This document shows, one piece after another, positions 3,576 to 57,056 of a stretch of 64,000 bases of DNA. The DNA lies in assembly GCA_965237525.1 (NCBI GenBank), contig CBDEFO010000008.1, positions 608,001 to 672,000 on the forward strand, written 5' to 3'. A program made the position numbers and the translations under genes. Source of the stretch: Candidatus Latescibacterota bacterium (GTDB lineage Bacteria; Latescibacterota; CBDEFO01). The notes under the pieces are model-generated. The model saw nothing but the letters and a program-made list of their open reading frames with translations. It was not told where the DNA came from and did no database searches. Within the stretch, counting starts at the first letter, position 1. The number at the start of each line of letters is the position of its first letter.

Positions 3576-4877
3576 ATGATGAAGCTGTCGAAGAAAATTG
3601 ACATCGAGTGGTCGTACAGCCAGAAAAGAGATAGAACTCTCACGGGTGTGGCTGCCCTGTCTCCCCCGACTAATTCTATCGGGGGCAATTGTCTACTGTC
3701 TACCCTTTTGAGCCTTTGTCTGATCCTTCTCTCTGCTCCTTATGTAAGATCTGCCCCGCGCACAGATGAACTCAAAAGAAAGGTGGAAGAGAGAAAGACT
3801 GAGCAGGAAGATCTCCGGAGGGAAGTGGAGGAGAACAGAAGACAGGTGGCAAGCCTCAAAGGAGTGGAAGGTCAGGTAGGGGATCGGATAGATGCTCTCG
3901 AAAAAGAGATAGACTCCCTCGAAAGATACATAGCTCTCTTAAAGAGGCAGGAGCGGGAACTTGAGTCGGAGATAAAAAGTACAGAGTCTTTGTTGAAAAA
4001 GACAATAGAGAGACTCTCCCAACACCAAAAGGCGATGTCGAACAGGCTACGGGAGATTTACAAAAAGGGAAAACTGGACGGACTGGAAATCATTCTATCG
4101 TCAAGTTCTTTTTCCGATCTTTTGAGGAGGTCTAAGTATCTTTCTTTAGTAGCGTCCCAGGACAGGGATAATTACGAAAAGATAAAACTCCACAAGGCCA
4201 GTATAAAGGAGGCCAAAAGCAGACTGGAGGCCGACTACAAAAAGAAGGTGAAAATAGAAGGTGAAAAGATAAGGGAGAACAAAAGACTCAAGGTGAGCAG
4301 AGAAGAACACACAAGGCTCCTTGTCTCTGTTCAGAAGGATATGAAACTTAAGCAACAGTTAATAGATGAGAACACTCGCTCCGTAGCCCTCCTGGACGAG
4401 GAGATAAACCAGTTGTATGAGGTGATTCAAAGAGAAGCGCAAAGTAGAAAAGGCCGGGCCGGGTTTGAGGATTTTGCCAAGATGCAAGGAAAGTTGCTGT
4501 GGCCTGTTGCAGGCAAGATTGTGAGTAGCTTCGGAAAGCACAGGGATGAGAATCTAAAGACCGTTACTTTCAACAGGGGCATTGACATTAAGGTGGCAGA
4601 GGGGACGGAAGTGATAGCAGTTGCGGCGGGCGAGGTCGTCATGACAGATTGGATGAGGGGCTACGGAAAGTTTGTCATAGTCCATCACGGGGACGGATAT
4701 CTTACAGTCTATGCCCACCTTTCGGAAGTGTTTGTGAACAAAGGGGATATGGTAGATACAGGAGACATACTGGCTTATTCAGGACGGACGGGGTCTTTAG
4801 ACGGTCCAAAGCTCCACTTTGAACTGCTCGAAGGCAAAGAACCTCAAAATCCCACGAGTTGGCTGAGCAGTAACTGA
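3576..4877 (+). CDS. envC: Murein hydrolase activator EnvC family (coiled coil + M23 domain); start uncertain
   Basis: Long coiled coil, WPVAG, NRGIDI, YAHL, LHFE; ftsEX context. Confidence 0.85.
   Translation: MMKLSKKIDIEWSYSQKRDRTLTGVAALSPPTNSIGGNCLLSTLLSLCLILLSAPYVRSAPRTDELKRKVEERKTEQEDLRREVEENRRQVASLKGVEGQVGDRIDALEKEIDSLERYIALLKRQERELESEIKSTESLLKKTIERLSQHQKAMSNRLREIYKKGKLDGLEIILSSSSFSDLLRRSKYLSLVASQDRDNYEKIKLHKASIKEAKSRLEADYKKKVKIEGEKIRENKRLKVSREEHTRLLVSVQKDMKLKQQLIDENTRSVALLDEEINQLYEVIQREAQSRKGRAGFEDFAKMQGKLLWPVAGKIVSSFGKHRDENLKTVTFNRGIDIKVAEGTEVIAVAAGEVVMTDWMRGYGKFVIVHHGDGYLTVYAHLSEVFVNKGDMVDTGDILAYSGRTGSLDGPKLHFELLEGKEPQNPTSWLSSN
3663..3685. repeat. Palindromic repeat family A copy, within the envC N-terminal region
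   Basis: cccccgactaattctatcggggg, a variant of CCCCGATAGAnTCAATCGGGG. Confidence 0.7.
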
Positions 4878-6434: not shown

Positions 6435-6456
6435 CCCCCGATAGATTCAATGGGGG
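6435..6456. repeat. Palindromic repeat family A copy
   Basis: cccccgatagattcaatggggg upstream of the probable cdsA start. Confidence 0.7.
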
Positions 6457-6508
6457 ACAAGCCAGGAATCGGGCGAAGAACTTTTTGGGTAAAAAGCAGA
6501 AAGACGTG

Positions 6509-19956: not shown

Positions 19957-20568
19957 CTACATTTTTCCTTCAAAAGCCTCTATTTCCTTTCTGTACTGCA
20001 GTGTCCAGCCGATCTCGTCGAGTCCTTCCAACAGACAGTATTTCTCAAAGGCGTCAATATCGAATGAATATGTTCTACCATCCATAAGTACTACCTCTTG
20101 ATTTTCTAGATCGACAGTAATCTTATAGCCGACCTGTCGCAGAACGTCCGCAAATATCCTGTCAACGAGAGAATCTGGAAGCACTATAGGTAGCATCCCG
20201 TTCTTATAGCAGTTTCCGCGAAAAATATCCGCAAATGAGGGCGCGATAATCACCGGGATTCCGAAATCCCCAAGCGCCCAGGGGGCATGCTCGCGGGAAC
20301 TGCCGCATCCGAAGTTCCTTCTTGCGATTAAGATACTGGCACCGTTGTATCTTTCCTGATTGAGCGGGAAATCGGGATTCAGCGTCCCATCCTCCAGATA
20401 GCGCCAATCGTGGAAAAGGTATTCTCCAAATCCCGTTCGCTCGATCCTCTTGAGGAACTGCTTGGGGATTATCTGATCCGTATCTACATCGACGCGATCT
20501 AACGGGACACAGAGCCCGACGTGTCCGTCCCCGATTGAACCTATCGGGGATTTGATAAAATTCCGCAT
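19957..20568 (-). CDS. leuD: 3-isopropylmalate dehydratase small subunit with a 9-aa repeat-derived insertion
   Basis: [29 protein letters not shown]. Confidence 0.96.
20524..20550 (-). repeat. Family A palindrome inserted in frame in leuD
   Basis: tccccgataggttcaatcggggacgga encodes SPIGSIGDG between MRNFIK and [10 protein letters not shown]. Confidence 0.85.
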
Positions 20569-22011: not shown

Positions 22012-22100
22012 TCCCCGATTGAATCTATCGGGAATCGCCCTACATTACACAGGGCTGGGTTAGGTGCCCTGTCTACTGTTTGCAGTCTACTGTCTATTTG
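22012..22100. repeat. Family A palindrome plus family C heptamer (TGTCTAC)-type element
   Basis: tccccgattgaatctatcggga, then acagggctgggttaggtgccctgtctactgtttgcagtctactgtcta. Confidence 0.75.
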
Positions 22101-27245: not shown

Positions 27246-27358
27246 GAGATTGCTTCCCCCCACCCCCCGATAGAGTCAATCGGGGCTTCAATCGGAGACT
27301 CGCAATGACGGTTTAGGGAGGAGAGGCGGTCCCCCCTGTCTACTGTTTGCTGTCTACA
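27246..27358. repeat. Composite repeat: family B arms enclosing a family A palindrome, followed by family C heptamers
   Basis: gagattgcttc...ccccgatagagtcaatcgggg...ctcgcaatgac...ctgtctactgtttgctgtctac. Confidence 0.8.
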
Positions 27359-27362
27359 GCTT

Positions 27363-36955: not shown

Positions 36956-37042
36956 CAATTCTAAGTTAAGCCGACAGGACATCTCCCATCCCTTAAGATT
37001 TCTTCGCTGACCCTTCGCTTCGCTCTGGGCTTCCCCTGACCA

Positions 37043-37150
37043 CCGATAGAGTCAATCGGGGACTCGCAATGACACCCTTTGACTTGACCCTCAGTCGTTG
37101 CAAGGGGTGGAACCCCGACCCCGAAGGAGACGCGAAGCGGAACCAATCTC
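37043..37150. repeat. Composite family A + B repeat; its 32-nt end is an exact inverted copy of 54599-54630
   Basis: ccgatagagtcaatcggggactcgcaatgac...ccccgaaggagacgcgaagcggaaccaatctc. Confidence 0.8.
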
Positions 37151-48230: not shown

Positions 48231-51200
48231 TTATTCTCCGACAACTGCAAATTTACCTCGTCTTATGTCCCCATTGTCTTCTACTATATATAGATATATA
48301 CCCGATCCTACGGTCTCTCCGTTCTCATTTCTGCCATCCCATTCGACTCCGCCGTCTCCTTCCTGATCGATTAGTGTCCGTAATAGGGAACCGTCCGAGG
48401 TATATATGTTGACCGTCGCACTCAGCGCTAAGTTCCCGAATATGAGCTCGGACCGTCCGACGCTCGGCAATCTGAAGGGATTTGGGAAAACAACTACATT
48501 ATTAATATCACCCGCTGCGATCCTGATAGTTTCAGCGTCGGATACGATCCTGTCCGATTCATCCTTTAGATTATCGACCGAGAGCACATATGTCTGGCCG
48601 TAAGATAGAAGGGGCGTATCCTGGCTTAGAGTCAGTATCACTTTCCTTCTATCCGAAGAATCCACCTTCGCTGACTCTATCAGTATCCCATCTGATGTGC
48701 TGCGACCGCTCCGTATCGAATAGAGAGAGACTTTATTGGAAAGGGGATCTATCTTGTCGCTGAAAGTTATTTCTATTTTCGTGCGCGAGAGAGTCTGTAA
48801 AGAGGCGATCTTTACGGCTGAATTCTCTCTTTTCAGGACGGAGAAGGAGACTTTGTTGTGATCTTTTATCTCTGAGCCGAACAGATCCCTTACACCCGTG
48901 ACTTCCAAAACGTAGCCCGAATCTGGAGGAATTGGATTCTCAAATCCCAGGACGACCCTCATCCCCTCTCTATCTAAGACAGTGGAACTCGGAGATCCTA
49001 TCTTATCTGATACGTTGTAATGTCCGGGTGACTTGGCCGAAGGTCCCAAAGGTTCATTGAAGATCGCCTCGATATGGTTTTTGGTTATAGCGTTAGCCGA
49101 AATCAGCCTCGGCGCAGCACTGGCCACTCCAGCTACGATGTCCGACAATCGCCCCTCAGAGGGAGGCGCATTAGAATCTAAAGACGAGATAGCGTAAAAG
49201 TATGTGATATCGGTCACAAGCCCAGCGTCTATGTAGAAGGGATCCGAGACTCCGTCCGCTATCAGAGTCAGATCATCTCTGTTACTACCTCTGTAGACTC
49301 TATACGATCCGCTTCCTCCCTCCCACGATAGTCTAACCCTTGTCGAATCCACCACAGAGACAGTCAATCCACCCGGCGGAGAGATTCCGCCTCTTGGAGC
49401 GTCCATCTCGTATATCCTTACAGCCCCGTCCCTGTTGAACATCACCTCTGGAAGACCGTCTCTGTCGAGGTCGCCGATAACGGGGAGGAACGTCAGATCC
49501 ACATCTATGTACCATACAGGACTGTAGCTGTCAGGGGCCTTGCTATCGAATAGATAGAGGTTCGGGAGTGCGCATACTGCAAACTCGTCCTCTCCGTCCC
49601 CGTCAAAATCTCCGGTAGATATTCCATTTCCCGGAGACTGAACCCCCAATATCTCCTGCTGCCATTCGACCTCGTAGCTGTCCTCTTTGGTAGATTGGTA
49701 GACGGAGATCCTCCACCTGCTCCCTCTTGGATCGAAAGGATCTGTGAACCTCCTGCCGACTATAAACTCTATCTTCCCATCTTTATCTATATCGCTTCCT
49801 CCCCCGACGATCCTGGCGTCAGAATGAGGGACACTCTCAGACCACGTCTTTCTGAACAGATCGTCCCCTCTGCTTTCGTATATGTACACGTCTCCGTCCG
49901 AATCGCCCGCTAAGATCTCTCCCTTTCCGTCGCCATCGAAGTCTCCCAGTACAAAGCGCGGCCCGATCTGGTTTTCGCCGCTCGTGAAGTTCGTCATTGA
50001 TCCCACAGTCTTGAACGAATTGTCCCCATCGCTTTCAAAGACGACTACGGCTTTGTCTATGTTGGAACGAGCTATGATCTCATACTGTCCGTCACCGTCT
50101 ATATCGCCCAATTCTCCGCCCCACATATCCTTTGCCTCCCATATCTTCCTCGTCGGAAAGGAGTTTGTACGATCTCCTTCAAATATCCTGAGCCTTGCAG
50201 AGTCGACGCCCATCAGCTCAAGCTTACCGTCTTTGTCTATATCCCCTATGTTCCAGGGAAGAAAGAGGTTCCTGCTTGAAAATTCTTTGGCGATGCCCCC
50301 ATCTGGCTGCACCTCATAGATTGTTGTAATGTCGTACGTGCTGTCCGTATAGGGCATCAGAGCTATCTCCATATTCCCGTCGTTGTCGAAGTCCGACGTC
50401 CTGTTAGACAGATATCCGTCGGGCAGAGACCACGCCTGTGAATATCCCCCCTGCCTGATATTTTCTCCTTCCAAGGTCACAGTTCCCCTCGAACTTGAGG
50501 ACAAAAGCCCTCCTGGGTTCTGAGCAGACACAAAAAAGGAATAATCCCCAGGTTCTATCTCATCGGGTATCCTTACGGAATGAAAATCGGTCTGATTGGG
50601 CGCTCCCAGAATTTCTGGATCTCCCGATTGTCCGTTACGAGTTAATGTCAGCGTTCCAGTCGTCGGATCGTCCGTCCTCCACTCCACAAAGTAGGCAACT
50701 TTGTTCCCGTCCAACCTTTTGGCTATGGAGATATCCCTTATCTGCGGGGCACTGTGATCCACCCTGACGACTACCCTGTCCTCCACTGCCGATCCATCTA
50801 TAAGGAACGCTCTCAATCTCACCACATAGAGTGAAGCTTCAAGCCTCGACGTATCCCAGAAAGTCAGGGTATCTTCCAAAGCTGTTGTTCCTACCGCTTC
50901 GAACAATTTATTCCAGCTTTTCGGATCGCTTCCCCTGCCCCAGCTTACCTCGTAAGAAGTGATGCCTTCTCCCAGTACGGTCCCCACTATGGCCGCGCCC
51001 AAGTCCGCTCCTCCTCCAGTCTCTGGCTTGGATATTCGAACTGTAAATGGAGAATTCTGGGAAAGCGCCTTTTCGACATCTATTGCCCCCGATCCTGAGC
51101 GGGCGTCCCATCCCTCCCCGCTTGAATCTATCGGGGACCGAATATCGAGCGCAGACGAAGCTACGGCCATCCGCAGCTCCTCCGGCGAAAGCCCGGGATC

Positions 51201-52442
51201 CTGGCTAAGCAAAAGTCCCGCCAGGCCCGATACAAAAGGAGCCGCCATAGATGTTCCGGAAAGCAGAACGTATCCTCCTCCCAGGCCAGCGCTGATGATC
51301 GCAACCCCCGGGGCGACTACATCCAAGTTCCATCCGAAATTGGAAAAGGAAGCCACTTGGCTCCTCACATCGATCGCCCCTACAGCTATAGTTTTGTCGA
51401 AACCCGCCGGATAGAAGAGACTCTCCTCAGCTTCATTCCCGGAAGATGCTACTAAAACGACGCCCAATTGATATGCGTACTCTATAACGTCCCTCATAAG
51501 AGGAGAGGGCCTGGGGTCTCCCCAGCTCATGTTTATCACATCTGCTCCATTATCTGCGGCATAGACTATGGCTGAGGCTACATCGTCGTCCTCAAGGAAG
51601 GCTCCCAGGCTCAGGTTCAGTCCTGCTCGCAAGGCCATAATTCTGCAATCTGGACAGACCCCCGCTATCCCCAGGTTATTGTCCACCACAGCTCCAGCTA
51701 TCCCGGCCACGTGCGTCCCGTGGCCCGACTCGTCCATCGGATCGTTGTCTGGCTCCAGGTAGTCGCCTACTCCCGGAAGTGTAGGGGCGTCAGTGAAGTC
51801 CCATCCCCTTATGTCATCTACATATCCGTTCCCGTCGTCGTCAACGCCCTCACTTCCTGATGCCTCTTTTAGGTTAATCCATATATTATCTTTCAGGTCC
51901 TCGTGATTGTAATCCACGCCTGAGTCTACTATTGCTATGATCACGCCTCCGCCTCTTGAGAATTTCCCCCTCGCTTTCTCCCAGCCGATAGCTCTCAAGC
52001 CCCACTGATCCTTATATTTTGGATCTTTCGGAGCTGTGTGATAGCGATTCAGATAGTTGGGCTGAGCGTATTCGACATAGCTTTCACTCTCATATTCCTC
52101 TATGGCATCTTCAACATCAGATGACACATCCATCCTCAGCTTATATATATAGTCCAATCCTCCCACTACAGGTTTGCCGATCCCTTTCCCGCTTCCATAG
52201 CGCGGGAAAAGTTCCTCCTCTGAGAACACTTTGAATTTCTCAGACATGCTGTCCCACTCCGCTGCCGCCTGGGACGACATCTTGGCACTTCCCGCCTTGA
52301 GCTTCACAATCAGTTCACCCGGAGCGTACCCCTCTGCTATAGCCTCCGAGACTTCATCGGATAGTGCTAACGATATGAATCCACAGACGAGCGCCTGCGC
52401 TGTAAGAGCTAACAGTACGATCCTTATCGCTATATCCCTCAT
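48231..52442 (-). CDS. Secreted S8 (subtilase) protease with FG-GAP repeats, FN3/Ig-like domains and C-terminal FlgD-Ig-like domain
   Basis: Catalytic IVDSG, HGTHVAG, GTSMAAP; DxDxDG repeats; FPNPF...WDGRNENGETVGSGIYLY. Confidence 0.92.
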   Translation of the reverse strand: MRDIAIRIVLLALTAQALVCGFISLALSDEVSEAIAEGYAPGELIVKLKAGSAKMSSQAAAEWDSMSEKFKVFSEEELFPRYGSGKGIGKPVVGGLDYIYKLRMDVSSDVEDAIEEYESESYVEYAQPNYLNRYHTAPKDPKYKDQWGLRAIGWEKARGKFSRGGGVIIAIVDSGVDYNHEDLKDNIWINLKEASGSEGVDDDGNGYVDDIRGWDFTDAPTLPGVGDYLEPDNDPMDESGHGTHVAGIAGAVVDNNLGIAGVCPDCRIMALRAGLNLSLGAFLEDDDVASAIVYAADNGADVINMSWGDPRPSPLMRDVIEYAYQLGVVLVASSGNEAEESLFYPAGFDKTIAVGAIDVRSQVASFSNFGWNLDVVAPGVAIISAGLGGGYVLLSGTSMAAPFVSGLAGLLLSQDPGLSPEELRMAVASSALDIRSPIDSSGEGWDARSGSGAIDVEKALSQNSPFTVRISKPETGGGADLGAAIVGTVLGEGITSYEVSWGRGSDPKSWNKLFEAVGTTALEDTLTFWDTSRLEASLYVVRLRAFLIDGSAVEDRVVVRVDHSAPQIRDISIAKRLDGNKVAYFVEWRTDDPTTGTLTLTRNGQSGDPEILGAPNQTDFHSVRIPDEIEPGDYSFFVSAQNPGGLLSSSSRGTVTLEGENIRQGGYSQAWSLPDGYLSNRTSDFDNDGNMEIALMPYTDSTYDITTIYEVQPDGGIAKEFSSRNLFLPWNIGDIDKDGKLELMGVDSARLRIFEGDRTNSFPTRKIWEAKDMWGGELGDIDGDGQYEIIARSNIDKAVVVFESDGDNSFKTVGSMTNFTSGENQIGPRFVLGDFDGDGKGEILAGDSDGDVYIYESRGDDLFRKTWSESVPHSDARIVGGGSDIDKDGKIEFIVGRRFTDPFDPRGSRWRISVYQSTKEDSYEVEWQQEILGVQSPGNGISTGDFDGDGEDEFAVCALPNLYLFDSKAPDSYSPVWYIDVDLTFLPVIGDLDRDGLPEVMFNRDGAVRIYEMDAPRGGISPPGGLTVSVVDSTRVRLSWEGGSGSYRVYRGSNRDDLTLIADGVSDPFYIDAGLVTDITYFYAISSLDSNAPPSEGRLSDIVAGVASAAPRLISANAITKNHIEAIFNEPLGPSAKSPGHYNVSDKIGSPSSTVLDREGMRVVLGFENPIPPDSGYVLEVTGVRDLFGSEIKDHNKVSFSVLKRENSAVKIASLQTLSRTKIEITFSDKIDPLSNKVSLYSIRSGRSTSDGILIESAKVDSSDRRKVILTLSQDTPLLSYGQTYVLSVDNLKDESDRIVSDAETIRIAAGDINNVVVFPNPFRLPSVGRSELIFGNLALSATVNIYTSDGSLLRTLIDQEGDGGVEWDGRNENGETVGSGIYLYIVEDNGDIRRGKFAVVGE
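51115..51137 (-). repeat. Family A palindrome in frame inside the S8 protease gene
   Basis: tccccgatagattcaagcgggga encodes SPIDSSGE within DIR-SPIDSSGE-GWD. Confidence 0.8.
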
Positions 52443-54762: not shown

Positions 54763-55278
54763 TCACTTTCTTTCGCCTTTAGGTTTTGCAAAGAGCGGAA
54801 GCGAACGGTCCGTCTCGGCCTCTATTTTCCGGTGGCAGGAGTGACACACACAGATCAGGTTCTCCAGCCTGTTCGCTTCCACGTTCGACTTGAACATCCG
54901 GTATGGCAGAATGTGATGCACGTCCAACTGCTTTCCCAATTCTTTCTCCGTGGCACCGCATGTTTGGCAAGTGTAAAGGTCCCTTTCTCTTGCCTGTTGA
55001 GCCTGAGATTCCCAGTTCCCCCCTCTTTTGTCAGGGTGCCCGTCTAAACGGATAAGGGGCTCCTTATCCGCCTCCCTTTTCCATTTCTCGAAACACTCGC
55101 TGTCACAAAAATGGAGCTTCAGTCCATGCTTGACGTACCATTCGGGCATCTGGACAAGCTTTGAACAATAGCTACAAGGGACATCTAACATCTGATCCTT
55201 CGTCACATCCGCACCCGGAAACTCGAAAGTCATCTGATCGGAGAGAGAGTCCGTTTCATTTAATTTACATATCGACAT
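54763..55278 (-). CDS. HNH endonuclease with an N-terminal Cys-rich Zn-binding region
   Basis: CSYC...FCDSEC; RERDLYTCQTC, LDVHHI, NRLENLICVCHSCH. Confidence 0.85.
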   Translation of the reverse strand: MSICKLNETDSLSDQMTFEFPGADVTKDQMLDVPCSYCSKLVQMPEWYVKHGLKLHFCDSECFEKWKREADKEPLIRLDGHPDKRGGNWESQAQQARERDLYTCQTCGATEKELGKQLDVHHILPYRMFKSNVEANRLENLICVCHSCHRKIEAETDRSLPLFAKPKGERK

Positions 55279-55537: not shown

Positions 55538-57056
55538 AAGCCTTGTGAAATAGTTATGTCCCAGGCAGCGTCTGAAGCGCCGATTATGGGTCAAAGAGAA
55601 GCATATCGTATCGTTTTGCTGTGGAATAAGCAAAATAGTCTTATCAGAGTTCTGGTCAGCAAGGAACAGGAGCTGTTTGAAGAACAGGATGCACTGTCTT
55701 TGACAGGCAGGGCACACATAGACGCTTTCCCCCTTCTTATGAAAGATACAAGCCTCTTGAGATTCTGTACTGTTGCAACAAGATTCAACTGTTCATTCAG
55801 TGAGGCTGGTCCTCTATAACGGGCTCGTCCCATACCGTGTTGTTGCCTGGCTTCAGCAAAGATATGTTCACTGCGTTTACGGAGTCTCCGGGAGAGTTTG
55901 TAGTCAGCTGTTAATGAGATAGACCGTGCATGATTTCTGGCTTTCGCCTCTCGCACTTTTCTATCCCGTTCGGCCTGAATATGTGCTGGATTTGTCTTGT
56001 TTTTCCATGTAGGAATCGGTTCAATCTTCTCATCGGCTCGCAGAGGAATATGGGGTATGATTCCCCGGTCAAGTACATCAGCGATAAAATTACCAGAACC
56101 GTAACCGGTATCGGCACTAAGTGTCTGAATGTCTTTGGGCATGGTGTATGTTTCAAGGTCATCTACCATCTTAAGGGCACTTTCGGGCTCTGCTGTCCCT
56201 GTCGCCTGCGTGCCCTGAGTCTCAAGGATTACTCTGCTTTTTGTGTCGATCAGATCATGGCCCATAAACGAGAGAAAAGCCCCTTTGCCCTTCGATTTGC
56301 TGTATAAGCGCGCGTCGGGGTCTGTAGTCGAACGGTGTGTTTGGTTCGTCCACTTTTCACCATGAAAGTCTTTATCCTGAGGATGCCCGGACCTACCCTT
56401 TGTCTTATCACCTTCAAAACCGATTCCCTTGAGATAATCATCAAGAGAAACAGGGGGTTCTATCGGCTCAATACTTTTCACTGAAGCATCAGCTTGTATC
56501 TGAGTGCCGTCGACACTAAGGTGTTTACCGCTCACAACACCGACATCTATGCAACACTGGACTACCTGACGCATTATCCGTTCAAACAACCCACTGGATG
56601 CCCACTTGTGATTGCGAAGCTTGTTGATCGTGCTCCTATCCGGAACCGCATCATCAAATGTCTGATGACAAAACAACCGATATGCCGCATGCATCCCCAC
56701 TTCCTGACAGAGCCGATTCTCACTCAAATTATACAGATAGCCAATAAGGATCATTCGAACAACTAATTCAGGATCAATACCGGGTCTGCCATTGTCAGGG
56801 CAATAACAATCTGATACAACGTCTCGTACAAATGAAAAATCAACTGCCTCATCAATCTGACGAAGGATATGATCCTCGGGAACTAAATCCTCCATCTGAA
56901 AATAGTGAAACATCGGATTTGTCTGTTCCTGCTTTTGTGGGGTCATTGTTTCCTCCATGTATAATATTATCAATAACATAATATAATACATCGGAGCTGC
57001 TTTATCAATGCTTGTTCTATACTACTTTCTGAATCTAAGGGTTTTTCACAAGGCTT
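55538..57056 (-). mobile_element. IS1182-family insertion sequence, 1519 bp
   Basis: IRs AAGCCTTGTGAAA at both ends; 4-bp TSD TTAG at 55534-55537 and 57057-57060. Confidence 0.92.
55591..56946 (-). CDS. IS1182-family transposase
   Basis: LVPEDHILR, GRPGIDPE, VDGTQIQADAS, STTDPDARL, ADTGY, EHIFAEAR, QNLKRL. Confidence 0.92.
   Translation of the reverse strand: MTPQKQEQTNPMFHYFQMEDLVPEDHILRQIDEAVDFSFVRDVVSDCYCPDNGRPGIDPELVVRMILIGYLYNLSENRLCQEVGMHAAYRLFCHQTFDDAVPDRSTINKLRNHKWASSGLFERIMRQVVQCCIDVGVVSGKHLSVDGTQIQADASVKSIEPIEPPVSLDDYLKGIGFEGDKTKGRSGHPQDKDFHGEKWTNQTHRSTTDPDARLYSKSKGKGAFLSFMGHDLIDTKSRVILETQGTQATGTAEPESALKMVDDLETYTMPKDIQTLSADTGYGSGNFIADVLDRGIIPHIPLRADEKIEPIPTWKNKTNPAHIQAERDRKVREAKARNHARSISLTADYKLSRRLRKRSEHIFAEARQQHGMGRARYRGPASLNEQLNLVATVQNLKRLVSFIRRGKASMCALPVKDSASCSSNSSCSLLTRTLIRLFCLFHSKTIRYASL

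Follow-up and report, generated by a model that had tools for sequence, protein, structure and literature searches.

The cyanobacterial SDRs are dispersed repeats of 21-27 nt that occur at filled and empty orthologous sites, and Elhai et al. 2008 is said to have described them as nested in themselves, in 7-mer tandem repeats and in mini-transposons. The hairpin analyzed here is likewise dispersed with filled and empty orthologous sites, its length is also in the low twenties (23 nt), and like the SDRs it is mobile without a known enzyme. It was also found inserted into its own copies, into tandem repeats of 7-mers and within mini-transposons, as SDRs reportedly are. A literature search gave no match for the motif or the junction pattern; Elhai et al. 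2008 may already describe such junctions. According to the passages on SDR5 in the cited accounts (PMC5861425, PMC4390886), this repeat is a precise insertion in HIP1 and is confined to Nostocaceae, whereas our hairpin replaces or duplicates four bases at a degenerate site and its core crosses phyla. Sequence and phyla also appear to differ.

It has been reported, in the parts of the literature on Rickettsia palindromic elements (RPEs) used here, that RPEs are ~105-150 bp long and that nearly half of them lie in ORFs (PMC10969869, PMC3184786). An earlier note on this DNA had drawn an analogy to RPEs. The analogy is fair, but RPEs are not the closest system. Both are palindromic repeats found in frame in unrelated genes, and insertion in frame relative to orthologues was observed here as well; the hairpin is only 23 nt long and has 17% of its copies in called genes. 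The GTAG/CGTC REPs, as portrayed in the relevant part of PMC3733652, are small stem-loops, mostly intergenic with some in ORFs, and the CGTC REPs have no dedicated transposase. Our hairpin resembles them as a short stem-loop with many mostly intergenic copies, and its fold lies within the stem of 5-13 bp and loop of 2-20 nt used to define them. It differs in having no tetranucleotide tag (the flanks are variable, the commonest right flanks being ACCGC in 36 and GTAGA in 28 of 540), no clustering at gene 3' ends and no RAYT in the genome; neither was any repeat-flanked RAYT of the REPIN kind found. The hairpin enters CGTC repeats and is not a member of that class. The yeast mitochondrial GC clusters, in the portion of PMC8811140 that treats them, are short GC-rich mobile palindromes with short target duplications and an in-frame occurrence in var1, all of which recall the short palindrome, short duplications and in-frame copies seen here. 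The GC clusters are organellar, however, and translational bypass occurs at some of them, whereas two frameshifting copies of our hairpin simply split ORFs, so that there is no sign of bypass. Finally, the hairpin does not behave as a MITE: a target duplication was found at 26 of 592 copies, deletion is commoner, and the target is unlike that of both resident YTAR elements.

Identification of the hairpin and its copy number

The window is a stretch of 64,000 nt from a Latescibacterota assembly (GCA_965237525.1, contig CBDEFO010000008.1), here called G000, whose completeness is 96.6%. Seven 21-nt cores were found in it at no more than three mismatches (shuffled sequences gave a mean of 0.05 and a maximum of 1), starting at 3664, 6436, 20529, 22013, 27265, 37041 and 51116. 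All seven copies listed in the earlier note are thus present, the one given at 37043 being off by 2-3 bases. At the same threshold 592 copies were counted in the whole genome, compared with 0-3 in three shuffles, and the genome-wide enrichment that the earlier note had left to be counted is therefore real. The unit is 23 nt long: the 21-nt core is preceded by a pyrimidine and followed by a purine, and these two end bases form T..A in 291 of the 592 copies, C..G in 178 and mixed pairs in 76. It folds into an 8-bp stem with a 7-nt loop. The stem is imperfect, with one mismatch, and one of its pairs covaries, from G-C to A-T in 24 copies and to T-A in 9. A stricter pattern gave 375 copies in G000, 362 in G001 (a sister species of the same genus, about 95% identical; both genomes are near-complete) and none in 39 other genomes of the phylum. 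A shorter relative of 17 nt has 17 copies in G000. Rfam gave no hit in the window at gathering score. The element is real and was active recently; at 23 nt it is a very small mobile hairpin, and its general kind is known.

Copies in the window and their host genes

The copy at 20528..20550 (minus strand) lies in leuD (19957..20568, minus strand), which encodes the small subunit of 3-isopropylmalate dehydratase (PF00694). Together with a degenerate 4-nt duplication at 20524-20527 it makes an exact 27-nt in-frame gain at 20524-20550, which accounts for nine extra residues (SPIGSIGDG). From F to DTDQI the spacing is 24 residues in this protein, compared with 15 in 110 of the 120 homologues examined (eight of the others were not parsed, one has a spacing of 12, and one, P0005, is the query protein itself). 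In the leuD of G001 a second copy is nested within the first, adding 18 nt (six residues) with the frame kept. In the AlphaFold model of LeuD, residues 1-15 have no secondary structure and the first strand begins at residue 16; confidence is low at residues 1-10, and the insert is therefore not firmly placed. The second genic copy, at 51115..51137 (minus strand), lies in frame in a gene for an S8 peptidase with FG-GAP and FlgD-Ig domains (48231..52442, minus strand). It reads SPIDSSGE, is common to G001 and gives a net gain of six residues, with LDIRSPIDSSGEGWD here and an EDIGTPGWD-type segment in all three phylum orthologues. The insertions proposed for these two proteins thus hold up against alignment, as the homologues are shorter by 9 aa and 6 aa rather than of equal length, and the proposal of a very small selfish hairpin that inserted recently and adds (predicted) peptides in frame is supported.

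A third copy, proposed for the N-terminus of an EnvC protein, is an uncertain case. At 3663..3685 (plus strand), in the 5' region of an envC-like ORF, it adjoins 7-mer tandem repeats and is absent from G001. The frame (PPTNSIG) is open and the orientation opposite, as described, but translation of the copy is uncertain because G001 has a different 5' region throughout and the start codon of the ORF is not firmly assigned. The copy at 6435..6457 (plus strand) lies between uppS and the likely start of cdsA, so that it is probably upstream of cdsA; it has a perfect 4-nt duplication, with CAAG on both sides, and is common to G001. The intergenic copy in the leuA-leuC gap, at 22012..22034 (plus strand), has an empty counterpart both in G001, where the difference is +19 nt, and in a contig of run X2. 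A nested pair occupies 27258..27297 (plus strand) inside a CGTC-type repeat, with the inner copy at 27264-27286 set in a degenerate older one; in G001, 12 nt are missing from the right arm of the outer copy. The last copy, at 37040..37062 (plus strand), is intergenic, lies in a CGTC-type repeat and is common to G001. Tandem repeats of 7-mers of the GTAGACA type were seen in the window at 22069-22096 and 27338-27359; they are common between genes and frequently host the hairpin.

Filled and empty sites, junctions and target

G000 was compared with 2.8 of the 4.54 Mb of G001. Species-specific sites numbered 117 of 335 in G000 and 90 of 319 in G001, and 218 of the 335 G000 sites were common to both. 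Clean junctions could be read at 43 of the 207 specific sites, 164 being dropped for divergent flanks or large indels. Among these 43, 21 insertions replace 3-4 nt, 6 duplicate 4 nt and 16 do neither. A stricter exact-flank search, which included orthologues and paralogues, gave 19 of 39 that replace 4 nt and 10 of 39 that duplicate 3-4 nt. Two junction classes were thus recognised, one in which a 4-mer is replaced with a gain of 19 nt and one in which it is duplicated with a gain of 27 nt; most of the sites have no outgroup, and some of the +27 cases could be slippage losses. Over 18 events, 57 of the 72 target positions agree with the form R^YNNR^Y, with the reservation that events in repeats and across the two genomes are not fully independent.

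Perfect 4-nt duplications are also more frequent in G000 than expected (26 compared with 4.7). They are of the form TNNA or CNNG in 24 of the 26 cases, 25 are preceded by a purine and 20 are followed by a pyrimidine. Similarly, the flanks of the 592 copies are RY in 350, YY in 122, RR in 110 and YR in only 10. Insertion occurs in either orientation, and 332 of the 592 copies are near other repeats or other copies. For a MITE that carries the hairpin, the empty allele is an intact CGTC-type repeat, which suggests that the direction of the change at this allele was insertion. With regard to short palindromes in G000, CTAG is strongly depleted (observed/expected 0.27), and GANTC shows neither avoidance nor excess.

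The hairpin as a target of itself

Nested copies lose the same four bases of the host 5' arm in 30 of 38 cases in G000 and in 22 of 28 in the compared part of G001, nested loci common to both genomes being counted in each. At ten loci the hairpin is single in one species and nested (+19) in the other, and the inner copy is inverted at eight of these ten; slippage cannot produce such inverted copies. The R^YNNR^Y rule predicts that nested hosts should have a pyrimidine after the four bases. This is what was found, with a pyrimidine in 62 of 64 nested hosts compared with 674 of 919 copies overall (p 2e-6). The inner copies at this hot spot mostly have C..G ends (25 of 39 in G000), and the bases removed are TAGA.

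Distribution in genes and reading frame

Gene calls were made with a simple custom model, by which called genes cover 82% of the genome. Only 103 of the 592 copies (17%) lie within called genes and 461 lie outside them; genes hold 28 copies per Mb, compared with 584 per Mb elsewhere, a 21-fold lower density. Copies occur at 0.58 per kb in co-directional and in convergent gaps and at 0.39 per kb in divergent ones, and their median distance is 102 nt from a stop and 126 nt from a start, so that no clustering at gene 3' ends was seen in G000 by gap-type density or by these distances. There is no orientation bias to transcription (157 compared with 159) or to local GC skew.

Of the genic copies, 56 lie more than 30 residues from both ends of the gene, in four stop-free frames. 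The four predicted peptide readings are SPIDSIG, SPIESIG, PDRFNRG and PRLNLSG, and they occur in unrelated proteins. Hosts in G001, where 25 were scanned, include LpxD, MeaB, an AcrB-type transporter and a DinG-type exonuclease-helicase, and in-frame copies were also found in other lineages, for example in RelA. Besides LeuD and the S8 protease, 14 further pairs of filled and empty peptides were obtained. Duplication-type copies (at most one mismatch) are enriched in genes, with 20 of 103 compared with 38 of 489. Separately, paralogous genes at C8:1372288 of G000 and in tile L084 of G001 carry the hairpin at the same spot, one per species, which suggests a hot spot or gene conversion.

In-frame insertion had been regarded as the defining trait of the family, and this does not agree with the low density in genes or with the commonest gain of +19/+20 nt, which breaks the frame. 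When genes were called on the empty allele, coding gains were multiples of three in 17 of 20 cases (two of the 17 represent one tandem event), compared with 38 of 96 non-coding gains (p 3e-4). These coding gains mostly keep the frame, but frameshifting insertions do exist: one of the three out-of-frame coding cases has a divergent 5' region, and the other two split an ORF, namely that of an IS transposase (+20) and that of a 151-aa protein (+19). The element itself does not preserve frame, and the best reading of the genic in-frame copies is that they are the ones selection has spared.

Occurrence beyond the genus

Ten other genomes, picked for having a match, were checked; eight have 6-36 copies and two have one. 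Titles of the carriers include Deltaproteobacteria, the PVC group and Thermodesulfobacteriota. None of the 66 genome matches listed was cyanobacterial, and viral contigs gave no exact match. In metagenome contigs the core lies inside the repeats proper to those lineages, where equivalent sites carry it in either orientation. Of the variants outside the genus, the asymmetric one is flanked by RY in 26 of 37 cases and by YR in none. A perfectly symmetric variant does not follow this rule (12 RY and 12 YR of 28) and may for this reason be a separate family.

Search for the enzyme and resident insertion sequences

The earlier note had proposed looking for RAYT/IS200-type or GIY-YIG genes flanked by the motif, and no such partner turned up in the loci examined. 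Pfam profile searches gave no RAYT/Y1 gene (PF01797) in G000 or G001, no RVT_1 in G000 and no Ku in five of five genomes. One small GIY-YIG gene is present in G000, and the G001 match is only of UvrC size. When profiles for GIY-YIG, DUF559, Y1, RVT_1, four-helix bundle, Ku, IS110 and IS1380 were run on 5-10 carriers, none was common to all except GIY-YIG, which was found in five of five, partly at UvrC size. None of 53 GIY-YIG, DUF559, Y1 or reverse transcriptase loci in five carriers is bracketed by the motif (6 have a single match), nor is any of the 25 Y1 loci in three carriers besides G000 and G001, two of these loci having one weak match. In G000, 42 genes have a copy on each flank; these, and the families into which 626 neighbouring genes were clustered, looked ordinary. 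Neighbours of 80 metagenome copies (127 of 145 ORFs, by Pfam) are mostly housekeeping genes with no nuclease cluster; they include two transposases (IS630-type and IS110) and one HTH_38 ORF.

Two reverse transcriptase genes in G001 (L218, L220) were not found in G000; one of them is retron-like, lies beside a 294-aa partner ORF and appears to be interrupted by an IS. G000, in which no Y1/RAYT gene was found, nevertheless retains several further families of small hairpins, GTAG-type repeats among them. In the window, a small HNH endonuclease ORF (54763-55278, minus strand) adjoins an IS and has no flanking hairpin copy, and an IS1182-type transposase gene (DUF772 and DDE) lies at 55591-56991 (minus strand). 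The IS1182-like element is about 1.5 kb long, duplicates YTAR on insertion and is represented in G000 by 138 marked copies; in 2.8 Mb of G001 the marker turned up only twice, so the burst looks species-specific. It was rejected as the hairpin driver because it duplicates YTAR and no hairpin was found in the copies parsed. The two commonest other hairpins, considered as CRISPR repeats, are actually parts of this element. An IS1380 element is intact in G001 (C1:2921195-2922841) and frameshifted in G000 (C7:60944-62589), a linked MITE family of 220-260 bp has about 45 paired copies in G000, and over 40 near-identical copies of another IS1380 are present in G001. Both resident IS systems that make 4-bp duplications prefer YTAR.

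Proposed mechanism of insertion

The junction rule is unusually clear. We consider it probable that the element is a non-autonomous 23-nt hairpin with about 590 copies whose insertions after the split of the two species replaced or duplicated a four-base target. The likely route is a staggered cut of 4 nt at R^YNNR^Y by an enzyme acting in trans. In the proposed mechanism two nicks four bases apart would be made at the symmetric degenerate site, and one such pair could give both classes, with trimming of the four bases leading to +19 and fill-in leading to +27. The hairpin sequence would be supplied from another copy. Purifying selection would remove most coding insertions, leaving net gains of multiples of three, and other lineages may have been reached by the hairpin as a passenger of ISs and MITEs.

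Two observations sit uneasily with a pure cut. Of the 43 clean junctions, 16 belong to neither class, and at non-self sites the removed 4-mer resembles the outer 2+2 bases of the element at 34 of 48 bases, compared with a shuffle mean of 24.9, a resemblance that also suits a microhomology route. This route would do without a dedicated cut: during replication or gap repair, template switching primed by microhomology, or gene conversion, would make new copies from existing ones, and flanks carried over from the donors would account for the four-base pattern. The many copies near other repeats or copies (332 of 592), the extra flank bases in some filled alleles and the fruitless enzyme searches agree with it. 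We nevertheless regard it as unlikely: at the self hot spot mostly C..G-ended inner copies (25 of 39) replace TAGA, sharp modes of -4 and +4 with TNNA or CNNG duplications are not expected from random microhomology, and the copies favour no orientation with respect to transcription or local GC skew. As for the cut itself, a speculative and rather improbable proposal is that an element of about the smallest possible mobile size crosses phyla by hijacking a host enzyme that makes a 4-nt staggered cut, one reaction giving either the deletion or the duplication. The obvious candidate would be a type IIA topoisomerase. In the relevant sections of PMC6379681 and PMC3814380, these enzymes are described as leaving 4-bp 5' overhangs at a symmetric degenerate site and as preferring REP hairpins in E. 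coli, but their drug-trapped sites as favouring G at +1.

Movement of a REP-type element by a RAYT or IS200-family HUH transposase that has since disappeared or has diverged beyond detection is already a weakened reading and appears quite improbable. The small imperfect hairpin with its stem mismatch and covarying pairs, the GTAG- and CGTC-type repeats of the genome and the Y1 genes in three other carriers would fit such a history; but the hairpin has variable flanks with no GTAG or CGTC tag, its copies are not concentrated at gene 3' ends, PF01797 gave no hit in G000 or G001, and no Y1 locus was bracketed by the motif. The E. coli TnpA-REP, moreover, requires GTAG and cuts single strands at C^T, not R^Y, according to the part of PMC3333891 that bears on this. 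The resident IS1380 was also considered, with the hairpin as a minimal two-end derivative moved by its DDE transposase. The 19-nt core matches 11 of 13 bases of the right TIR of this IS and of the 220-260-bp MITE, the IS makes 4-bp duplications, and its transposase is intact in G001. DDE integration, however, is not known to yield target deletion, which is the commoner outcome for the hairpin. Furthermore, the MITE duplicates YTAR whereas the hairpin duplicates sequences of the CAAG, CAGG and TCAA types, two extra bases lie outside the TIR-like start of the hairpin, only one of eight other carrier MAGs gave a PF13701 hit, and genomes of the phylum without the hairpin also contain the TIR. We therefore judge this origin very improbable. 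The least probable reading is that the copies are functional sites, whether as hairpins that bind proteins or act in regulation or as peptide tags of use to the host, and that host selection keeps them with the frame preserved by design. Its support comes from the 218 of 335 sites common to both species and the recurrence of the same core in other phyla; against it, about one third of the sites are filled in one species only, the element enters its own copies and MITEs and splits genes, the modal +19 breaks the frame, and four different (predicted) peptides appear across unrelated proteins.

Implications

The question of how repeats too small to hold transposon ends can move arises for SDRs, CGTC REPs, RPEs and GC clusters alike. 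Two genomes at 95% identity here provide about 200 species-specific sites, from which a testable target rule and cut geometry were obtained that narrow the enzyme search. For the host, the element is a steady source of predicted insertions of 5-11 residues in dozens of proteins, and it misleads start-codon calls. If a transposase-free route proves to be true, it could also explain SDRs, CGTC REPs and many of the tiny in-frame palindromes of uncultured bacteria.
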